Shown: in pieces, positions 6,186 through 12,733 of the stretch
Numbering within the stretch: the first letter of the stretch is position 1
How the letters are laid out: each line of letters starts with the position of its first letter
UHGV virus genome: UHGV-0120184
Strand: one strand, 5' to 3'
DNA length: 14,793 nucleotides
DNA from: a virus
Made by a program: the position numbers and the translations under genes
Notes under the pieces: generated by a model
What the model was told of the DNA's origin: nothing
Seen by the model: only the letters and a program-made list of their open reading frames with translations
The model's database searches: none

Positions 6186-7331
6186 ATGAGCATCACTGAA
6201 TCAGTAACACATCACATCAACAGCGCACTGGATGCAGCGGAAGATACCGTTAGGGTGCCAGACTTCACTATCACACTGGAAGGGAAAGATGCCAGCCTGA
6301 AGAACATCACGCAGCGCATCATGAGCCTGACCATGACAGACAACAGGGGTTTTGAGGCTGACAGGGTGACACTGGAAATCGACGACGCCGACGGCGGGGT
6401 GGTACTTCCGGAGCGCGGAACACGATTATCGCTGGCGATGGGATGGAAAGGTGAAAGCCTCACTCGCAAGGGGGCGTTTGTGGTGGACGAAGTGAGCCAC
6501 GAAGGTCCGCCGGATAAGCTGACCATATCCGCGAACAGTGCGGATTTTCGCGAAGAGTTTAACGTGAAACGCGAAGTCTCCTGGCATGACGTGACCGTTG
6601 AGCGTGTGGTATCTGCCATCGCGCACCGTTACGGACTGAAAGCACAAATCAGCGAAATGCTGATGAATATCGAAATCGACCATGCAGACCAGACAGAGGA
6701 AAGCGACATCTCGTTCCTCACGCGTATGGCTGACATGCTGGGTGCAATAACCACCGTAAAAAACGGGTGCCTGCTGTTCATTCTGCCGGGTGGCGGTGTG
6801 ACAGCCAGCGGGCGCGCCCTCCCCTCATTCGCCCTGACCCGCTCGGATGGCGACAGTCATCGCTTTCGCATTGCTGACAGAAAAGCCTATACCGGAGTGA
6901 AAGCTTACTGGCTGGATTTAAAGTTCGGCCAGAAGAAGGCCGTGAACGTGAAAAAGCGAAACGCGAAAACCACACAGAAGCCGGAGAAAAGCAGTTCACG
7001 GGAGGGTGGATACATGGAAGGCGCAGAAGGCAATGTGTATGTGCTGAGAAAAACCTACCCGAACGAAGAAGCCGCGCGTCGCGCAGCTGCCGCACGCTGG
7101 CAGCAACTTCAGCGGGGTGCAGCAGAATTCAGCATCACGCTGGCGCGCGGACGCGCCGACCTGTATCCGGAGATGCACGGCACGGTATCCGGGTTCAAGA
7201 GCGACATTGACAATCAGGACTGGATTATTTCGCGCATTGAGCACGTCATCGACGACAGCGGCTTCACCACCAGACTGGAGCTGGAAGCAAAAATCGCAGA
7301 CTGGATAGCAGAGCGCGCCACGACTGGCTAG
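6186..7331 (+). CDS. D: Phage tail protein D (P2 gpD-like late control / tail formation protein)
   Basis: 381 aa with gpD-family hallmarks (PDFTITLEGKDASLKNITQRIMSLTMTDNRGFEADRVTLEIDDADGGVVLPERG…FLTRMAD…ISRIEHVIDDSGFTTRLELE). GGGAGG Shine-Dalgarno 5 nt upstream of the ATG. Confidence 0.9.
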   Translation: MSITESVTHHINSALDAAEDTVRVPDFTITLEGKDASLKNITQRIMSLTMTDNRGFEADRVTLEIDDADGGVVLPERGTRLSLAMGWKGESLTRKGAFVVDEVSHEGPPDKLTISANSADFREEFNVKREVSWHDVTVERVVSAIAHRYGLKAQISEMLMNIEIDHADQTEESDISFLTRMADMLGAITTVKNGCLLFILPGGGVTASGRALPSFALTRSDGDSHRFRIADRKAYTGVKAYWLDLKFGQKKAVNVKKRNAKTTQKPEKSSSREGGYMEGAEGNVYVLRKTYPNEEAARRAAAARWQQLQRGAAEFSITLARGRADLYPEMHGTVSGFKSDIDNQDWIISRIEHVIDDSGFTTRLELEAKIADWIAERATTG

Positions 7332-7372
7332 AATGAGCGCGAGCCCACCCCGTTTCAGCCAGGGGGACCATC

Positions 7373-7675
7373 ATGCATCCTTGCCCATACTGCGGAGCAA
7401 GTACCCGCACCAGAACAAGCCGCGACGCCAACGATACAGGAACAATCAGGGAGAAATATTACCAGTGCAACAACATTGAATGCAGCGCCACCTTTGTGAC
7501 GCACGAGTTTGTCGTGAGAACCGTATGCCGTCCGCAACCCACCGAAGAACGGGGAGTCGTCCCCGCAGACGCTTTCAAATCATGCCACCGGGGAAGGGAT
7601 CAACTCAGCCTCCCCCTGGGCGATTGCGCCTCCCAGTCAAAAACTGTACATTACGCGCGGGTGCCTTTCGGCTGA
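7373..7675 (+). CDS. ogr: Ogr/Delta-family zinc-finger late transcription activator
   Basis: N-terminus MHPCPYCG…TSR…REKYYQCNNIECSATFVTHE has the C-x2-C…C-x4-C zinc-finger layout and close resemblance to P2 Ogr. It lies immediately downstream of D, as in P2. The C-terminal tail is longer than P2 Ogr (100 vs about 72 aa). Confidence 0.8.
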   Translation: MHPCPYCGASTRTRTSRDANDTGTIREKYYQCNNIECSATFVTHEFVVRTVCRPQPTEERGVVPADAFKSCHRGRDQLSLPLGDCASQSKTVHYARVPFG

Positions 7676-7805
7676 CGGCTGGAAGGATTACCTGAAGGCC
7701 GGATGTGGAAAGGCCCCGGAAAACATCTCTGTTTAGCCGAGGCCCTAATCTACATATCTTTAGCAAGTAGAAGGTTAGCGCCTCTTTGAAAAAGGAGCAA
7801 GCGCT

Positions 7806-7946
7806 ATGCCGCAAAAAACGATCATCGTGAGCATTTTATGCTTAACCATGTTGTTGACCGTCTGGATGATACATCGTTCACCATGTGAATTCAGACTTAA
7901 CATCATGTGGTCAGAATTTGCGGCGTTCTTGCAGTGTAAACCGTAA
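7806..7946 (+). CDS. hok: Hok/Gef/PndA-family type I toxin (small membrane peptide)
   Basis: 46-codon ORF not in the supplied track: MPQKTIIVSILCLTMLLTVWMIHRSPCEFRLNIMWSEFAAFLQCKP. It has one transmembrane helix followed by the conserved Hok-family C-E-x-R and E-x-AAF motifs and is very close to PndA as I recall it. AGGAG Shine-Dalgarno at 7793-7797, 8 nt before the ATG. Confidence 0.75.
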   Translation: MPQKTIIVSILCLTMLLTVWMIHRSPCEFRLNIMWSEFAAFLQCKP

Positions 7947-7954
7947 GAAACCGC

Positions 7955-7976
7955 AGCGGGGGTGAAAGCCCCCGCT
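7955..7976 (+). other. Stable 8-bp GC-rich hairpin in the hok 3' region
   Basis: AGCGGGGG-TGAAAG-CCCCCGCT, 9 nt after the hok stop. hok-family mRNAs carry extensive 3' structure (the fold-back inhibition element); the specific role here is inferred. Confidence 0.4.
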
Positions 7977-8040
7977 ATCCGGTTGCCGAAGGTTCGGTCG
8001 AAAGCCGCACCCGTGCATGCAAGTGACAAAGAAAAAACAA

Positions 8041-8075
8041 AGCCCGCAGCGTAAAAACTGCGGGCTTTTTTATTC
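8041..8075 (+). terminator. Rho-independent terminator closing the hok locus
   Basis: Stem AGCCCGCAG / CTGCGGGCT with an 8-nt loop, followed by TTTTTTATT; preceded by an A-run, so it could also work on the minus strand. Confidence 0.6.
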
Positions 8076-8112
8076 ACATACCGAAGGTGTGGTAACTGCC
8101 TGGGTTCAGACC

Positions 8113-8136
8113 AAAAAAAGCCCCATAAAATGGGGC
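8113..8136 (-). terminator. Candidate minus-strand rho-independent terminator
   Basis: Plus strand reads A7-GCCCCA-TAAAA-TGGGGC; on the minus strand this is a GC stem followed by a T7 run. It lies about 300 nt downstream of the minus-strand membrane-protein operon. Confidence 0.4.
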
Positions 8137-8281
8137 TGAAGATTCTGTAAGGAATTTCACAGCAATGAGATTCTAGTCTCTTCCAATGATATATGAGTCT
8201 TCAGCCTGAATCAATGGGGCATGACTGTGAATCCACCGACGATCAAAACTTGCACAATGCCTGAAGTTGAGTTAGAAAAGT

Positions 8282-8342
8282 ACCGGGCGCGATATCCGGT
8301 TTATTTTTTGTTGCTGTGTTTTGCCTCGTGCCGGATATCGCG
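8282..8342. repeat. 12-bp perfect inverted repeat CGCGATATCCGG separated by a 31-nt T-rich spacer, with a nested terminator-like hairpin
   Basis: CGCGATATCCGG at 8288-8299 and its reverse complement CCGGATATCGCG at 8331-8342. The nested hairpin ACCGG-N9-CCGGT (8282-8300) is followed by TTATTTTTTG. Confidence 0.5.
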
Positions 8343-8432
8343 TCCACCGTTTTTCTGATGATTCTTATGAAATCGTACTTTATTGATTTACTGCCATCCT
8401 GGTTTGTCTTTTTATGTTCATTATTGCGACAG

Positions 8433-8828
8433 TCATTTCCTGTTTCTGGTGATGTTTTGATAAAAGTGAAAGAATAAAACGATCATTGCAGAAGGTATTG
8501 CTAAAACCATACATATCATTATATAAACAAGATGAAAATGATATATACCATAAGACCAGAAAAAAGGTTTTTTCCAGAATGATATGGATGTGTATTTTAG
8601 TGTAATTGTTTTTGTCAGGTATATTGAACAAGGAAGAGCCAGGCCACTGAGTATCAGAAATAAGTCAACTTTTATCGATGCTTCTGTTGGTGTGTCATAT
8701 ATAAGATGCAATATGGATATTATAATGGGGCACATTCCCCACAGGATATTTTTGAAATAGAATTTCCGGTTCATATGTTTATGCTCTTTGGTTTTATCCC
8801 GGGAATTGGCGCTTTGTTTTTTATTCAT
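8433..8828 (-). CDS. Hypothetical small membrane protein (3-4 TM helices); second gene of the operon, translationally coupled
   Basis: 131-aa ORF whose ATG (8828-8826) lies 5 nt upstream of the upstream gene's stop (8823-8821), giving an 8-nt overlap. Hydrophobic segments ILWGMCPIIISILHLIY, VDLFLILSGLALPCSIYL and YGIYHFHLVYIMICMVLAIPSAMIVLFFHF. Same AT-rich composition. Confidence 0.55.
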   Translation of the reverse strand: MNKKQSANSRDKTKEHKHMNRKFYFKNILWGMCPIIISILHLIYDTPTEASIKVDLFLILSGLALPCSIYLTKTITLKYTSISFWKKPFFWSYGIYHFHLVYIMICMVLAIPSAMIVLFFHFYQNITRNRK

Positions 8829-9492
8829 GAACGTTTTCGTTGTTTAATAACCATGGGGTATTATGATTATCCTTTATTTTTGATATGTAATTGTCAATAG
8901 TGGATTTCGTTTCATTATTGTGGTTATAGTAATCATGAAGAGTGCAAAACACATCATCTTTTATTGTGGCGATTAATGGGGCTTGTGTGAGGGTAAAATA
9001 TAAAGAACGATTACTTAGTGTCCTGAAATAAATTTTTTCGCCAATGACCAGATCGGTGTTCATTATATTGTAGCCTATTTCAAATATATTGTTTGATGGC
9101 ATGTGTAATACATATGTGGGGTATTTGTTGTGTTTTTTCATTAAATAATAAATAAAATCAGATACAGGCATCTGTTTTAGTTTTTTTTGCATCTTCCTTA
9201 TGTGTTGTGACATTAATATCATTTTCGAGAGAATGCATAAGAGACTAAACAAGAGATTAAATACTATGTTCAGTACTATCAGAGTAACAAACAGGCCAAT
9301 GCTCCTTAGCGCTGAAAATATATTGTCATTGTAAATATACTGGAATGTATATCCGGCTGATAAAAATGCCAATATATATAACACTATGTCTGTTTTATTT
9401 CGCTTTTTTATTTTGTAGGTTATTGCTGATTTTAAGAATAAGATGGCAATAAGAGCAGTGATAACCCAGAAAAATATAACGGAAACTTCCAT
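8821..9492 (-). CDS. Hypothetical multi-pass membrane protein (about 3 N-terminal TM helices plus a ~130-aa hydrophilic C-terminal domain); first gene of an AT-rich two-gene operon
   Basis: 223-aa ORF in a region of very low GC compared with the flanks. Hydrophobic stretches VSVIFFWVITALIAILFL, IVLYILAFLSAGYTF and IGLFVTLIVLNIVFNLLFSLLCIL. AAAGG Shine-Dalgarno-like motif upstream of the ATG at 9492. I recognise no family. Confidence 0.6.
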   Translation of the reverse strand: MEVSVIFFWVITALIAILFLKSAITYKIKKRNKTDIVLYILAFLSAGYTFQYIYNDNIFSALRSIGLFVTLIVLNIVFNLLFSLLCILSKMILMSQHIRKMQKKLKQMPVSDFIYYLMKKHNKYPTYVLHMPSNNIFEIGYNIMNTDLVIGEKIYFRTLSNRSLYFTLTQAPLIATIKDDVFCTLHDYYNHNNETKSTIDNYISKIKDNHNTPWLLNNENVHE

Positions 9493-9690
9493 AATTATAC
9501 CTTTATCGTGTTTTCAGGGAGGTAATTTATCATTGTGCTGATATGCATGTAAATACATGCATTATCTGTTTCTTATATTCTTTTTATGAAGTTACTGATT
9601 AATTTATATTAAAACAACACATTCATAATGAAATCAACATGTTCATATGGTTGACGGCAGATTTCTCTTTTTGTTAACCTGCATCTGCAT

Positions 9691-9939
9691 TAACTGTCGC
9701 TTCGGCGACCACCAATGTTCCATAGTGGCCTGTGAGGAACGCCTTCGGGTGGCCCATGTCGCTCCGGCGACCACCAATGCTCCATATGACCTGTGAGGAG
9801 CGCCTTCGGGTGGTCAGTTTTACACCTCCGTAGCCTGAAAGGAGCTGTGAGTACTGAAGGGAAACATCCCTGATGTATGGGCAAATCTGCACACCTTTGA
9901 GAGCAGATGTCACTACGGTTTTACGTGATGATGAAGGCA
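9691..9939 (+). repeat. Direct repeat copy A (~249 bp) bounding the recombinase module; begins with two tandem ~61-nt units
   Basis: Near-identical to 12484-12733 with only a handful of mismatches. Internal tandem units at about 9695-9756 and 9757-9817, each starting with the hairpin GTCGC-T(T/C)CG-GCGAC. Confidence 0.85.
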
Positions 9940-10682
9940 TTCCGGATTCCGTTCCGGTACTTTTATTTTTTCTCAGCAGACAGGCATAAAAACGCCTTTA
10001 AAATCTGCGTCTTAAGATATTTTCTGACTTTCCGCATGAGCTTCTTATGACTGTGCGCACGGCATAAGACCATTTGAAATTTGGTCGCTTGCGTGTGCAT
10101 GTGGAGTTTGAAGCTGTGCGGCGTCACTTGCGTGCGACCGAAGGGAACACCAAGTGACGCCGCGGCCATCTGCCCTGAAGGCAGCATCACGTAAGGTCTG
10201 GCAGAAAATCGTCGCTCGTGACAAGCGTCCTGATGCTCGTTTTGTCGCTCTGACAACGTCTTTCGGTGACGTATCCACGCCTTTCCGGCGCGTCCGTTTT
10301 CACACGGACGGCCACGCCGGAATGTCTTCTTAAACTTCGTAATACATGAGAGGTAAGTGTATTAACTGACTGAAATAAAGGAATAAAAATGAAAAATCGT
10401 TCTGATGTCGGGAGGCGTCATCGTAAGGTGACGGGGAGTATTCCTCAACAATCGCCCTGGTGCACAGGTAGCGAACTCCTGTAAGAACTCAACATGTGCA
10501 AGCTCTGCTACATCGACATCAAACGAGCCAGGAAGGCGAACAACCGCGTTACAGAGCCGTCCGTGATGACGAAAAACTAACAATATCAACGAACTTTTCT
10601 GTTTACCGGAAGGGCTGCGTATGCAGTTTTACTTTGTGAACGGAAGGGGGCTGCATCTGATTTTTACAGGGAGAATGACTTT

Positions 10683-11600
10683 ATGGCCCGGAAATCGTCA
10701 CGTTCTAAAGTTGAACTGTTTCGCAAGTCTTTCATCTCACTTGCCCGTGAGTGTGGTGGCAGTTACGCAACAACAGCTGACAGAATGAGAATTGCAAAGT
10801 ACTTCCTGAATTATTTACGTGAAAATGGAATTAAACTTCGCCAGACGAGCAGTATTAAAACCAGACATATTTCTGGTTACCTTCTCAGCAGGAAAGCAGC
10901 GGGTATTTCTCACCGGACTATTCAGAATGAACGGGCGGTTATGCGTGCCATTTTAGAAAAAGATGGACGACTTAAAATCGCAGATCCTTCTAACCCATTA
11001 TTGAGTAATGAAGCGCTCGGCCTAAAGGATACATGCCGTGATGGAAAGAAAATAGCATTGTCACCGGATGAATTCTGGAAAGCATTTGCTAAAGTGGAAA
11101 AAAAGAATCCTGGTGTGGCAGCTGCAATGCAGCTTTCTTATGTTCTGGGTTTAAGAACAAAAGAAGCCGTTCAGTCATGTAAGTCTGTTCAGTCATGGCT
11201 ACGGGAACTGAATTCAGGGTGCGATTCTCTTTCGGTCGTTTTTGGTACGAAAGGTGGAAGACCAAGAAATACCACAATTATTGACAGAGATGCGGTAAGA
11301 CATGCTTTGCTTTATGCTCAAAAAATAATGGATGAACACGACGGAAAACTTATTGACCGTCCAAATATAAAACAGGCTATCAATGTTTTTCGTTATCATG
11401 CCCGTAAAGCGGGATTGTCAGGAGTGAAATCTCCGCACAGTATGCGTTATCATTTTTCTCAGGAAGCCAGAAAATTTTATCGAAAAAATGGATATGGAGA
11501 GTCGGAAATCTACGCTCGTGTTTCTATGGATCTTGGCCATGGTGACGGAAGAGGTCGTTATGTAAAACAGGTTTATTTTAACGGTTCTGATGAAAGTTGA
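10683..11600 (+). CDS. Short tyrosine-recombinase-like protein (integrase family)
   Basis: 305 aa. Catalytic-domain-like order and spacing of residues: R in LGLRTKEA, K in TKGGRPR, H-x-x-R in HSMRYH, H in LGHGDG and a C-terminal Y in RYVKQVY. N-terminal region resembles a core-binding (SAM-like) domain. Assignment is by motif reading only. Confidence 0.7.
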   Translation: MARKSSRSKVELFRKSFISLARECGGSYATTADRMRIAKYFLNYLRENGIKLRQTSSIKTRHISGYLLSRKAAGISHRTIQNERAVMRAILEKDGRLKIADPSNPLLSNEALGLKDTCRDGKKIALSPDEFWKAFAKVEKKNPGVAAAMQLSYVLGLRTKEAVQSCKSVQSWLRELNSGCDSLSVVFGTKGGRPRNTTIIDRDAVRHALLYAQKIMDEHDGKLIDRPNIKQAINVFRYHARKAGLSGVKSPHSMRYHFSQEARKFYRKNGYGESEIYARVSMDLGHGDGRGRYVKQVYFNGSDES

Positions 11601-11603
11601 TAT

Positions 11604-12341
11604 TTAAAATGAATCTGGAGGATATGTGTTTTTGTTAATTTCGGTTATGATGATTTCTGATGCGCGATTACACATATCTTCATCAAAATACCCAATATGA
11701 CATTCATGAATGTGACAATTCAGTTTTCTGGATAGCCATATATTTGCCTCGTTACGGGATATGTTGGCTCTTTGCTGATAATTGTCAAAAAGTTTACGTA
11801 CTTTTGTTCTGAGTATTCTCAGGTTTTCTTTAGCCGGAGTACCTAATGGTCTTCCTGAGTTTTTATGGCATCCAACCCATGCATTGCATGGGGGACAAAT
11901 CCAGTAATATTTGTTTTCTGTCGCGGCTGAAATGGAAAATGGCATGAGAGCCCCTTTTATAAGATTCGTCTTATTTCCACAGTATGGGCAGATAACAATT
12001 GGTCGGACATCTGCAATATTCAGTGATGTATAAGTCAGTCGTTCATTTTTAACGATGTTTCTCTTTCCGCAATGGGTGAGAACATGCTTTATTGTATCTA
12101 ATTCTTCTCGTAGTATTTTGGAACTGACGCCAGTGCGATAACGTTGTTGAAAATAGCATTCAATATGACGTAGTTTTATGCTATTTGCTGAGCTTATCTG
12201 TATATTGGCATCTTTAAGAAATGAAGCAAGTCTTCTGGCTCTTCCCGTATATACCAACATATCTTCTGGCGTCGGGGCGCATGCTTTGGCTATTCTGAGT
12301 AGTTCATCTTTTAATTTTTTGTATTTCGATTTCATTTTCAC
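11604..12341 (-). CDS. Integrase-N-terminal-like domain fused to a Cys-rich zinc-ribbon-like domain; no recombinase catalytic motifs
   Basis: 245 aa. The N-terminal ~100 aa are paralogous in layout to the neighbouring recombinase N-terminus (…SSANSIKLRHIECYFQQRYRTGVSSKILREELDTIKHVL vs …TSSIKTRHISGYLLSRKAAGISHRTIQNERAVMRAIL). The C-terminus has CPYCG…CPPC…CH…CHIHECHIG…C Cys/His clusters. It is convergent with the recombinase gene, with stops 3 bp apart. Start is GTG 12341 or ATG 12335. Confidence 0.65.
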   Translation of the reverse strand: MKMKSKYKKLKDELLRIAKACAPTPEDMLVYTGRARRLASFLKDANIQISSANSIKLRHIECYFQQRYRTGVSSKILREELDTIKHVLTHCGKRNIVKNERLTYTSLNIADVRPIVICPYCGNKTNLIKGALMPFSISAATENKYYWICPPCNAWVGCHKNSGRPLGTPAKENLRILRTKVRKLFDNYQQRANISRNEANIWLSRKLNCHIHECHIGYFDEDMCNRASEIIITEINKNTYPPDSF

Positions 12342-12483: not shown

Positions 12484-12733
12484 TAACTTGTCGCTCCGGC
12501 GACCACCAATGTTCCATAGTGGCCTGTGAGGAACGCCTTCGGGTGGCCCATGTCGCTCCGGCGACCACCAATGCTCCATATGACCTGTGAGGAGCGCCTT
12601 CGGGTGGTCAGTTTTACACCTCCGTAGCCTGAAAGGAGCTGTGAGTACTGAAGGGAAACATCCCTGATGTACGGGCAAATCTGCACACCTTTGAGAGCAG
12701 ATGTCACCACGGTTTTACGTGATGATGAAGGCA
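12484..12733 (+). repeat. Direct repeat copy B (~250 bp)
   Basis: Second copy of the sequence at 9691-9939 in the same orientation. Differences: one extra T near the start, T to C in the first hairpin loop, and two single-base changes near 12668 and 12707. Sequences diverge completely after ..GATGAAGGCA. Confidence 0.85.

Follow-up and report, generated by a model that had tools for sequence, protein, structure and literature searches.

The window, by which we mean the whole 14,793-nt stretch of viral DNA analysed here (UHGV-0120184), is best explained between positions 7623 and 8075 by an intact hok/sok-family type I toxin–antitoxin cassette, an identification that we regard as very probable. 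The sequence supports a type I toxin locus of the Hok family, including a highly structured hok-like mRNA and a predicted cis-antisense Sok RNA. A chance origin of these features is excluded by the pass of the toxin peptide against its Pfam profile, together with the folding of the 417-nt transcript region (minimum free energy [MFE] -175.6 kcal/mol, z = -9.6 against shuffles). The locus is of an already known kind, real but ordinary, save for an absent helper reading frame. We suggest that it be annotated as a hok/sok-type cassette at approximately 7623–8075, the beginning of which shares sequence with the 3′ end of ogr (Table 1).

Table 1. Features of the cassette and its immediate surroundings in the window, ordered by start position.
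Feature	Positions	Strand	Details
ogr, late-gene activator	7373–7675	+	100-aa ORF; Pfam PF04606 (Ogr_Delta), 57.8 bits
Predicted hok promoter	7624–7652	+	-35 TTGCGC 7624–7629; 17-nt spacer; -10 TACATT 7647–7652; +1 = G7659
Crossover interval	7646–7707		62 bp identical in window, prophage and island copies
Predicted full-length hok mRNA	7659–8075	+	417 nt; MFE -175.6 kcal/mol, z = -9.6
5′ closing element (tac-like)	7659–7676	+	GGGUGC plus extension; pairs with 7993–8012 in the full-length fold
Upstream ORF, mok candidate	7703–7789	+	28 codons; no conserved reading frame
Predicted Sok antisense RNA	7708–7765	-	About 58 nt; 5′ end at 7764/7765 by analogy with sokW and sokC
GAGG at the mok Shine–Dalgarno position of hokC/hokW	7739–7742	+	From comparison with mokC and mokW
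Predicted Sok promoter	7772–7800	-	-35 TTGCTC 7800–7795; 17-nt spacer; -10 TAACCT 7777–7772
SD-sequestering hairpin	7776–7806	+	CCUC 7782–7785 pairs with GGAG 7794–7797
hok toxin gene	7806–7946	+	46 aa: MPQKTIIVSILCLTMLLTVWMIHRSPCEFRLNIMWSEFAAFLQCKP; Pfam PF01848, PHROG 251
Downstream box in hok ORF	7917–7926	+	Pairs with start-codon region 7806–7815
3′ UTR stem-loop	7949–7984	+	-25.3 kcal/mol, z = -5.9
3′ closing element (fbi-like)	7993–8012	+	Core GCACCC 8007–8012
Intrinsic hok terminator, two-way by sequence	8039–8075	+	Terminator scan; -19.6 kcal/mol, z = -5.4

An earlier note on this DNA had placed the locus at 7690–8075. Its end is retained, but the start lies further upstream, with the promoter -35 region at about 7623 and the 5′ end of the predicted plus-strand mRNA (7659–8075) at 7659. 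Because the unit begins there, it overlaps the last 17 codons of ogr: about this many codons extend across the predicted hok promoter and 17 nt into the hok mRNA. Annotation of E. coli relatives calls ogr an ogr/Delta-like zinc finger protein. The core of the description given in that note holds, namely a 46-codon toxin gene with a strong Shine–Dalgarno (SD) sequence about 130 bp after the ogr stop: the ogr ORF ends 130 nt upstream of hok, which is an ATG-initiated ORF of 46 codons plus stop, and AAGGAG is located at 7792–7797, 8 nt 5′ of the ATG.

The proposed membership of the Hok family is likewise borne out. The peptide scores 27.8 bits against the Pfam HOK_GEF profile (PF01848; gathering score 22), with residues 9–44 aligned to profile positions 7–42 of 42, and 69 bits against PHROG 251. 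The gene had been described as missed by the ORF track, which is true by reason of length alone; RefSeq/PGAP does annotate the identical peptide (WP_001135720.1, ‘Hok/Gef family protein’) in those E. coli genomes of RefSeq that were examined. Among related cassettes, which were gathered by a DNA pattern scan, the hok ORF is 45–48 aa long in 81 of 81 distinct versions. Its alignment columns have entropies of 0.48/0.25/0.65 at the three codon positions, a variability of the kind expected in coding DNA. More than 80% of Hok peptides conserve Met1, a Cys-x-Thr in the helix, Leu-Cys-Glu, a later Glu, and a C-terminal Cys/Tyr (Escalera-Maurer et al., bioRxiv 10.1101/2025.08.07.668861). The window peptide has the signature residues C12, T14, C27, E28, E37, and C44, with Pro26 in place of the Leu that precedes the conserved Cys-Glu in over 80% of these peptides. 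No match to Hok or to two AT-rich neighbouring ORFs was obtained with the PADLOC defence models. A 100-aa ORF on the minus strand (7775–8077) was set aside as an artefact because it matches no family and lies antisense to hok and its terminator.

Construct 82_1289, to which the window peptide is 80% identical, shares the Pro before Cys27 and belongs to a set of forty-five Hok constructs tested, of which three were non-toxic, 82_1289 not being among those three (Escalera-Maurer et al., bioRxiv 10.1101/2025.08.07.668861). In cluster 72 of the same study, identity is 57% to 72_1589, a Stx-phage copy next to lom, and 48% to 72_1621, a P2-like phage copy. These three constructs and the window peptide have in common a length of 46 aa each, two hard-coded cysteines, and an AAFLQCK end. 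That work addressed coding sequences and toxicity only, and Sok, mok, and the mRNA elements of these clusters are undefined there (bioRxiv 10.1101/2025.08.07.668861). The best-scoring named subfamily is that of E. coli hokA (NCBIfam NF007290): the window peptide is 45% identical to K-12 HokA and shares with it the MPQK start, the WMI-x-x-S-x-CE motif, AAFL-x-CK, and both encoded cysteines. HokA differs in its 50-aa length and in having mokA annotated as an in-frame extension, and the window peptide does not reach the cut-off of this HokA equivalog model (37.9 vs 89 bits).

On the RNA side, the promoter elements ATTGC and TA.ATT are invariant and at fixed spacing in eight cassettes from unrelated contexts, the spacers and upstream DNA of which differ. 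The predicted +1 coincides with the beginning, at 7659, of a match to the Rfam hok-leader model; this model, RF01794, bears the name ‘sok’ and represents the hok leader in mRNA sense, an orientation that was verified on hokC. The covariance-model search recommended earlier gave a divided answer: the match on the hok-sense strand (7659–7816, +) extends over the full model length with 45.9 bits (E = 5.4e-9), but the family's gathering score, 59 bits, is not reached. Scores for this Hok branch are 36–48 bits, those of hokC and hokW being 118 and 113, respectively. Rfam matches of the Thr_leader, Trp_leader, MicC, and similar types at 8006–8137 are look-alikes of the terminator hairpin and are far below their gathering scores.

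An alignment of fifty-nine sequences, spanning the mRNA up to the 3′ closing element (window 7659–8015), yields a consensus fold in which 98.7% of cells are paired, compared with 38–44% in slid controls, and which includes eleven compensatory pairs, the tested structure having been derived from the same alignment as that used for testing. In the MFE fold, 5′–3′ closure is formed by the pairing of 7659–7664 with 8012–8007 and of 7665–7672 with 8004–7997. The closing helix (RNAalifold columns 1–8 with 372–378) is kept in 52–59 of the 59 sequences with no compensatory change, and because it is invariant it offers no covariation evidence. The SD hairpin (-13.5 kcal/mol, z = -3.2) corresponds to helices 7 and 8, which are 99.7–100% paired in the fifty-nine sequences; the start codon (7806–7808) pairs with 7926–7924 in the MFE fold, and alignment helix 9 (columns 157–164 with 271–278) is 99.8% paired. 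The stable hairpins and terminator announced in the earlier note are both present: the 3′ UTR stem-loop is GC-rich and contains four pairs with compensatory changes in 10–17 sequences each, and a hairpin at 8039–8068 followed by a U run is part of the first plus-strand terminator after ogr in the terminator scan.

From these elements, a constitutive promoter (TTGCGC-17-TACATT) would direct synthesis of an approximately 417-nt hok mRNA from G7659, the 5′ end of which (7659–7676) would pair with the 3′ element (7993–8012) and thereby close the molecule. With the SD locked and the AUG paired with a box inside the ORF, folding together with comparative analysis shows the full-length mRNA to be translationally inert. 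If the locus works as do R1 hok/sok and Sp5 hokW/sokW, slow 3′ trimming down to the 7949–7984 hairpin, which is the likely stop for exonucleolytic trimming, would remove the 3′ closing element and let the leader refold. Removal of the 3′ 90 nt in silico results in local refolding of the 5′ end.

The Sok RNA, previously expected on the minus strand over 7700–7810 without an assigned promoter, can be placed within that range: a sokW/sokC-like promoter was located at 7800–7772, and the predicted RNA runs from 7765 to 7708, its 5′ end being set 7–8 nt past the -10 box after the examples of sokW and sokC. Both promoter hexamers are invariant in fifty-nine relatives; because they overlap conserved RNA helices, this invariance is not specific to promoter function. 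A consensus promoter scan misses the promoter because 7/12 positions match. The GAGGC..TAACCT at the locus matches the -10 region of sokW, mutation of which silences sokW (Takada et al. 2021, PMC8621323). In the predicted Sok, an unpaired 5′ tail of 19 nt precedes a hairpin (7745–7712) and then UUUCC, and the fold has -21.5 kcal/mol (z = -2.9); in forty-five distinct versions the tail is variable, and the hairpin arms and the end of the tail are conserved. A YUNR (U-turn) motif is frequent in the loop targeted by Sok, although we give no weight to so weak a test. The opposite-strand promoter, with its -35 overlapping the hok SD, would thus produce an approximately 58-nt Sok with full complementarity to leader positions 7708–7765. 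By analogy, this unstable RNA would pair with the refolded leader and bring about RNase III cleavage and decay; once the supply of Sok ends, possibly through element loss, transcription shut-off, or SOS induction, the 46-aa membrane peptide would be made and would depolarise the inner membrane.

This organisation resembles that of R1 hok/mok/sok, in which a long mRNA is closed 5′ to 3′, a terminator hairpin follows the 3′ element, and the hok SD is sequestered; R1 Sok is a short antisense RNA, the promoter -35 of which overlaps the hok SD. The window locus is predicted to have the same closure, terminator hairpin after the 3′ element, SD sequestration, and Sok promoter placement. The toxins, compared by length alone, differ (52 aa in R1 and 46 aa here). 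R1 hok requires translation through the 70-codon mok frame as far as the hok SD (Le Rhun 2022); in contrast, a conserved mok frame is absent from the branch to which the window locus belongs. Loci of the same type are hokW/sokW, carried by the Stx2 prophage Sp5 (Takada et al. 2021, PMC8621323), and chromosomal hokC/mokC/sokC of E. coli K-12. The window locus has the Sok promoter layout of both (the -10 TAACCT being the same in sokW) and, like hokW and hokC, a 5′ GGGUGC and a 3′ GCACCC motif. The toxins are more distant, with 28% identity to HokW (51 aa) and 24% to HokC, and hokW and hokC have an in-frame Mok extension, which at the window locus is prevented by a UAG 30 nt upstream of the AUG. 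The locus is not the published hokW/sokW itself: primers place hokW elsewhere in Sp5, and hokW has a 51-aa toxin and a hokC-like leader. A second cassette, next to lom in Sp5 and in 933W, is a relative of the window locus.

The earlier note had also proposed that a 28-codon ORF (7703–7789) ends inside the SD region and could act as a mok-like coupling frame. The ORF exists, but its TGA is located 2 nt before AAGGAG and hence upstream of the SD, and comparison does not support the coupling role. From the conserved ATG, the ORF has 1, 8, 15, 19, 25, or 61 codons in the twelve relatives compared, and it is a single codon in a relative that encodes the identical toxin. In the cassette of the serS prophage, the frame reads ATG-TGA. 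An ATG/GTG/TTG leader ORF reaching the hok SD is absent from 29 of the 59 representatives, and start columns vary among the rest. No mok start of the CTG, ATT, ATC, or ATA type is conserved after the conserved GAGG in a twelve-cassette alignment, and frame analysis found no start codon after GAGG 7739–7742 in the window. An in-frame UAG 30 nt upstream of the hok AUG, placed by the Sok -10 box, is conserved in every branch member, so that a mokC-type in-frame extension is not possible. The alignment columns of ATG7703 are invariant and belong to conserved RNA helices and to the Sok 3′ end, and the conservation of this ATG is better explained by these helices than by a reading frame; as judged from the aligned relatives, the 28-codon ORF of the window is lineage-specific.

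These observations bear on two other readings of how, or whether, the locus works. Ribosomes terminating at the TGA (7787–7789) of the 28-codon ORF might open the SD hairpin, with Sok blocking the leader. Such coupling would fit the position of the stop in the 5′ arm of the hairpin at 7776–7806, the finding that R1 mok translation need only reach the hok SD (Le Rhun 2022), and the extent of Sok, which at 7708–7765 would cover nearly all of the ORF; given the erratic length of that ORF in relatives, its reduction to a single codon beside an identical toxin, the 29 of 59 representatives that lack such a frame, and the alternative reason for the invariant ATG, we consider it unlikely. The other reading is that the cassette is a silent relic, its toxin or its translation disabled and the DNA kept by hitch-hiking. 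A conserved leader ORF is indeed missing, Pro26 stands beside the conserved Cys in place of Leu, and chromosomal hokA, hokB, and hokC did not confer post-segregational killing in earlier work (cited in bioRxiv 10.1101/2025.08.07.668861). Yet phages, plasmids, and islands all carry the unit whole, about 440 bp at 70–91% identity, and its helices show compensatory changes; the hok ORF has kept its length and its codon-position pattern; the Pro variant also occurs in 82_1289, outside the three non-toxic constructs; and toxicity of R1 Hok survived single alanine changes of conserved residues, that Leu included. We regard a relic as very unlikely.

A further alternative concerns the context of the locus, not its nature. 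In related P2-like prophages, the cassette closes the cargo region, with ogr before it and attR after it; in E. coli S1-CAM-02-A, 95 nt separate the hok terminator from attR, on the prophage side of that site, and attB, attL, and attR could be reconstructed at the serS terminator. An ogr-like gene is found at most 700 nt upstream in 85/127 cassettes. The claim that the locus sits at the prophage boundary, from which a stabilising or abortive-infection role had been derived, thus applies to such relatives (S1-CAM-02-A), but in the window the phage-type sequence ends inside the cassette. Relative to a P2-like prophage (L001), the window has 0 mismatches in 7300–7707, and all differences begin at 7708; relative to an ICE-like island (L139), it has 2 mismatches in 7646–8140 and 99.7% identity over 7622–12200, with divergence running leftwards from 7645. 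By this comparison, the window cassette is a hybrid with one part from a prophage copy and the other from an island copy, arising via recombination or misassembly.

We think it somewhat more probable than the opposite that the cassette belongs to the neighbouring ICE-like island and is not prophage cargo, its adjacency to ogr being secondary, through homologous recombination of two cassettes, RecA-dependent phage insertion at the island cassette, or joining by the assembler at the 62-bp repeat; if so, no prophage-related role can be read from its position. Window positions 7646–12200 are 99.7% identical to an island of E. coli S19-651, where the genes ahead of hok are an L31 paralogue and a TraG-like gene. 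Additionally, phage-type identity stops at 7707, the 95-nt phage arm from hok to attR is missing from the window, E. coli G1/2 carries both cassette copies (inverted, 1.36 Mb apart), and the junction was found in no complete E. coli RefSeq genome. On the other side, the same prophage type has a complete cassette in other strains, which makes the prophage-borne hok one parent of the hybrid, and the window by itself fits both true recombination and misassembly. Site-specific phage integration into hok cassettes was considered and rejected for this phage type: the serS terminator, 95 nt past the cassette, is its att core (CCTGCGGGCG), and the single copy of the cassette 5′ region in the genome inspected also counts against it. 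Elsewhere, a relative of the cassette adjoins trbA on an IncI-gamma/K1 plasmid. A scan of genome contigs found the cassette in only four species representatives, of which two are probably contaminants.

Near-identical hok cassettes in a prophage and an island of one chromosome amount to portable homology, which here has either recombined or misled the assembler. In other respects the biological gain is small: the peptide already has a RefSeq entry, published work describes an enrichment of hok in prophages, and a close relative has been toxicity-tested. What sets the locus apart is its leader. A conserved mok frame is missing despite a stable SD hairpin, and in the 46-aa Hok branch, the hosts of which include P2-like and Stx phages, IncI plasmids, and ICE-like islands, the SD hairpin, the 5′–3′ closure, and the predicted Sok are all conserved without mok. 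Since the leader frame is unconserved in this branch, Sok probably acts otherwise than by blocking mok translation. We offer more tentatively, as a possibility somewhat short of even, that the branch (clusters 72 and 82) is a naturally mok-less form of hok/sok in which Sok control does not pass through mok translation. If it is, Sok may act through duplex-triggered RNase III decay alone or by occluding a ribosome standby site at GAGG 7739–7742, and this widespread Hok branch, seemingly without mok, would be a handy natural system for studying control independent of mok.

The window is E. coli DNA and carries a real, intact hok/sok-type cassette. The 46-codon ORF that begins 130 nt past the ogr stop (table below), already recognised as a Hok gene in the earlier note, is, judged from its sequence, a Hok toxin. 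The peptide scores 27.8 bits against Pfam HOK_GEF (gathering score 22) and 69 bits against PHROG 251, the ORF is 45–48 aa long in 81 of 81 distinct cassette copies, and its variability per codon position (0.48/0.25/0.65) follows the pattern expected of a coding region. The best NCBIfam model, the HokA equivalog, is far under its cut-off (37.9 versus 89), and PADLOC has no model matching the peptide. The cassette is already known, both from RefSeq annotation and from the literature, where it is catalogued: WP_001135720.1 is the identical peptide, labelled ‘Hok/Gef family protein’ by PGAP in each E. coli genome inspected. Toxicity has been reported for 42 of 45 Hok homologues tested, the three exceptions being constructs other than 82_1289 (Escalera-Maurer et al., bioRxiv 10.1101/2025.08.07.668861). 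In that collection, 82_1289 is 80% identical to the window peptide, and 72_1589 and 72_1621 are 57% and 48% identical.

Features of the hok/sok-type cassette and its surroundings (window positions)
Feature	Position	Strand	Basis or property
ogr ORF, 100 aa	7373-7675	+	ORF scan
Predicted hok promoter	TTGCGC 7624-29, TACATT 7647-52, +1 G7659	+	ATTGC/TA.ATT conservation in 8 contexts
28-codon ORF	7703-7789	+	ORF scan; TGA ends 2 nt ahead of AAGGAG
Predicted Sok RNA, ~58 nt	7765 to about 7708	-	start set 7-8 nt past -10 box
Predicted Sok promoter	TTGCTC 7800-7795, 17-nt spacer, TAACCT 7777-7772	-	homology to sokW/sokC
Shine-Dalgarno (SD) AAGGAG	8 nt upstream of toxin ATG	+	sequence
hok toxin ORF, 46 codons, ATG start	7806-7946	+	ORF scan
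GC-rich hairpin	7949-7984	+	-25.3 kcal/mol, z = -5.9
Intrinsic terminator with U run	8039-8068	+	z = -5.4

The hairpin and terminator noticed earlier 3' of hok are both confirmed, and the proposal of a hok-like mRNA is likewise upheld. A covariance-model search, the check that the earlier note had named, found no hok or sok family across the window at the Rfam gathering threshold; under E-value reporting, however, RF01794 gave a full-length match at 7659–7816 (+, 45.9 bits, E = 5e-9), under its gathering score of 59. Labelled ‘sok antitoxin’, RF01794 is modelled in the hok-mRNA sense, from the mRNA 5' end through the hok AUG (in the K-12 hokC region, L004 602–754, minus strand, it falls on the hokC/mokC strand, opposite annotated sokC), so the match marks the hok leader and not the strand of a Sok gene. 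Every member of the 46-aa branch, the Hok relatives in P2-like and Stx phages, IncI plasmids and ICE-like islands, scores 36–48 bits, against 118 for hokC and 113 for hokW. For the predicted 417-nt transcript the computed folding energy is −175.6 kcal/mol (z = −9.6); in the MFE model, its 5' end (7659–7672) would close with 8012–7997, the SD (7794–97) would pair with CCUC at 7782–85, and the AUG with 7924–26 inside the toxin ORF. RNAalifold returned the same helices from 59 representatives (97% clustering), and 98.7% of cells are paired, versus 38–44% with partners slid, as tested on the same alignment that yielded the consensus. Compensatory changes affect 11 pairs, 4 of them in the 3' hairpin; the 5'–3' closing helix is invariant and thus fits the model but provides no covariation evidence.

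Homology in eight unrelated contexts sets in at an invariant ATTGC, 17 nt ahead of an invariant TA.ATT, which we read as the hok promoter. This placement of promoter and +1 corrects the locus start from 7690 to a point about 31–67 nt earlier. The 5' part of the cassette overlaps the end of ogr, whose last ~17 codons (7623–7675) coincide with the predicted promoter plus the initial 17 nt of hok mRNA; several other P2-like relatives have an 86-aa ogr, versus 100 aa here. The ~440-bp block (window ~7623–8075) recurs at 70–91% identity in P2-like phages such as P88, in Stx phages (adjoining lom), on plasmids (on an IncI-gamma/K1 plasmid adjoining trbA) and in E. coli chromosomes. A cassette DNA pattern scan retrieved >120 viral contigs and four species representatives from GTDB, so the branch is essentially confined to Escherichia and Salmonella. 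Exact pattern matches in a Planococcaceae MAG and a Vagococcus assembly (L015, L017), both Gram-positive, are likely contamination with enterobacterial DNA. Some records hold tandem pairs of family cassettes 460–720 bp apart (L006 1–742; L034 4318–5395; L111 5545–6358), one pair adjoining serS in the 1.2-Mb record pSTEC1012_1, filed as a plasmid. Stx2 phages (933W / VT2-Sakai; L003 1501–1878, L013 603–927) have two distinct hok loci: one is hokW/sokW as published (51 aa, hokC-like), and the other, just past lom, is a 46-aa cassette of the window's branch that older records leave unannotated or call ‘hypothetical’.

For the Sok-like minus-strand RNA, which had been expected earlier with no promoter pinned, there is now a candidate promoter at 7800–7772; the RNA itself is predicted. 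Both boxes, 17 nt apart, are invariant in 59 of 59 relatives, and sokW of prophage Sp5 and sokC of K-12 share the arrangement. Takada et al. silenced sokW by mutating its −10 region, GAGGC-TAACCT (PMC8621323). Because only 7 of 12 consensus positions match, a generic promoter scan misses this promoter. The RNA would consist of an unpaired 19-nt tail followed by a hairpin (−21.5 kcal/mol, z = −2.9); among 45 distinct Sok versions the tail is variable, and the hairpin arms and UUUCC end are conserved.

A position at the prophage boundary, as formerly suggested, holds for a related prophage, but the window's own junction lies inside the cassette. Left of ogr stand P2-like late genes (tape measure, sheath, gpD), and in E. 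coli S1-CAM-02-A a prophage of the same type is flanked by serS and dmsA. Set against K-12, this locus gives attB at the serS terminator, with CCTGCGGGCG as the duplicated core; attR lies 95 nt beyond the hok terminator, which makes hok terminal phage cargo in S1-CAM-02-A. An ogr-like gene occurs ≤700 nt upstream in 85 of 127 retrieved cassettes, and 43 of these lie at the very end of their viral contig. The 95-nt phage arm from hok to attR is absent from the window, which is completely identical to the serS-type prophage only through 7707, every difference falling from 7708 on. Positions 7646–12200 match, at 99.7% identity, an ICE-like island in E. coli S19-651, where the cassette comes after a TraG-like gene and an L31 paralogue. 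These identities place the crossover within 62 bp (7646–7707) common to both copies. Both parental copies occur in E. coli G1/2, in inverted orientation and separated by 1.36 Mb; they are 91% identical and encode one and the same toxin, with differences concentrated in the Sok region. Since the 62 bp are shared and no complete RefSeq E. coli genome contains the window junction, that junction is either a recombinant of two hok cassettes, which could have arisen by inversion or homology-driven insertion, or a join made across the repeat during assembly.

Rightward, a minus-strand terminator (8137–8119) is followed by a 30%-GC segment (8400–9600) with minus-strand ORFs 8433–8828 and 8821–9492, neither matching Pfam or PADLOC; the longer carries a hypothetical annotation in E. 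coli relatives, as does, in one genome, a second gene within this segment. Two STAXI RNA motifs (9695–9868 and 12489–12662; 78 and 76 bits) and an EFASI motif (10397–10525; 72 bits), all above Rfam gathering scores and all inside the island, adjoin an Integrase_1-domain gene (10683–11600) and a DUF3268 zinc-finger gene (11604–12341, minus strand). The repeated DNA around the STAXI motif extends over about 250 bp.

By analogy, possible roles of the cassette are stabilising its carrier, excluding other phages, or helping lysis when the prophage is induced, the last of which has been reported for hokW/sokW. A terminator scan found no plus-strand terminator between ogr and 8039, so late ogr transcripts may read into hok, and such readthrough would fit the lysis idea.

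The 28-codon ORF exists as described, although it stops just before the SD and not inside it; its proposed role as a mok-like coupling frame does not survive comparison. From the conserved ATG, the ORF spans 28 codons here versus 1–61 elsewhere, and a single codon in the serS-prophage cassette with the identical toxin. In 29 of the 59 representatives no ATG/GTG/TTG ORF extends up to the hok SD, and start columns differ among those in which a leader ORF does. A UAG, complement of the Sok −10 box, lies 30 nt before the AUG, in the hok frame, in 12 of 12 cassettes examined, and its context, AGGTTAGCG, is invariant in the 59-sequence alignment, which excludes an in-frame extension of the mokC or mokW kind. 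GAGG at 7739–42 occupies the position of the mok SD in hokC and hokW and is followed by no start codon, canonical or near-cognate. In R1, hok expression requires mok to be translated as far as the hok SD (Le Rhun et al. 2022); in a branch without a mok frame, hok translation therefore starts another way or is poor. Since its stop lies within the SD hairpin's 5' arm, the window's own uORF may help hok translation in this lineage. That this Hok branch apparently lacks a mok frame altogether is the sole mildly novel point.
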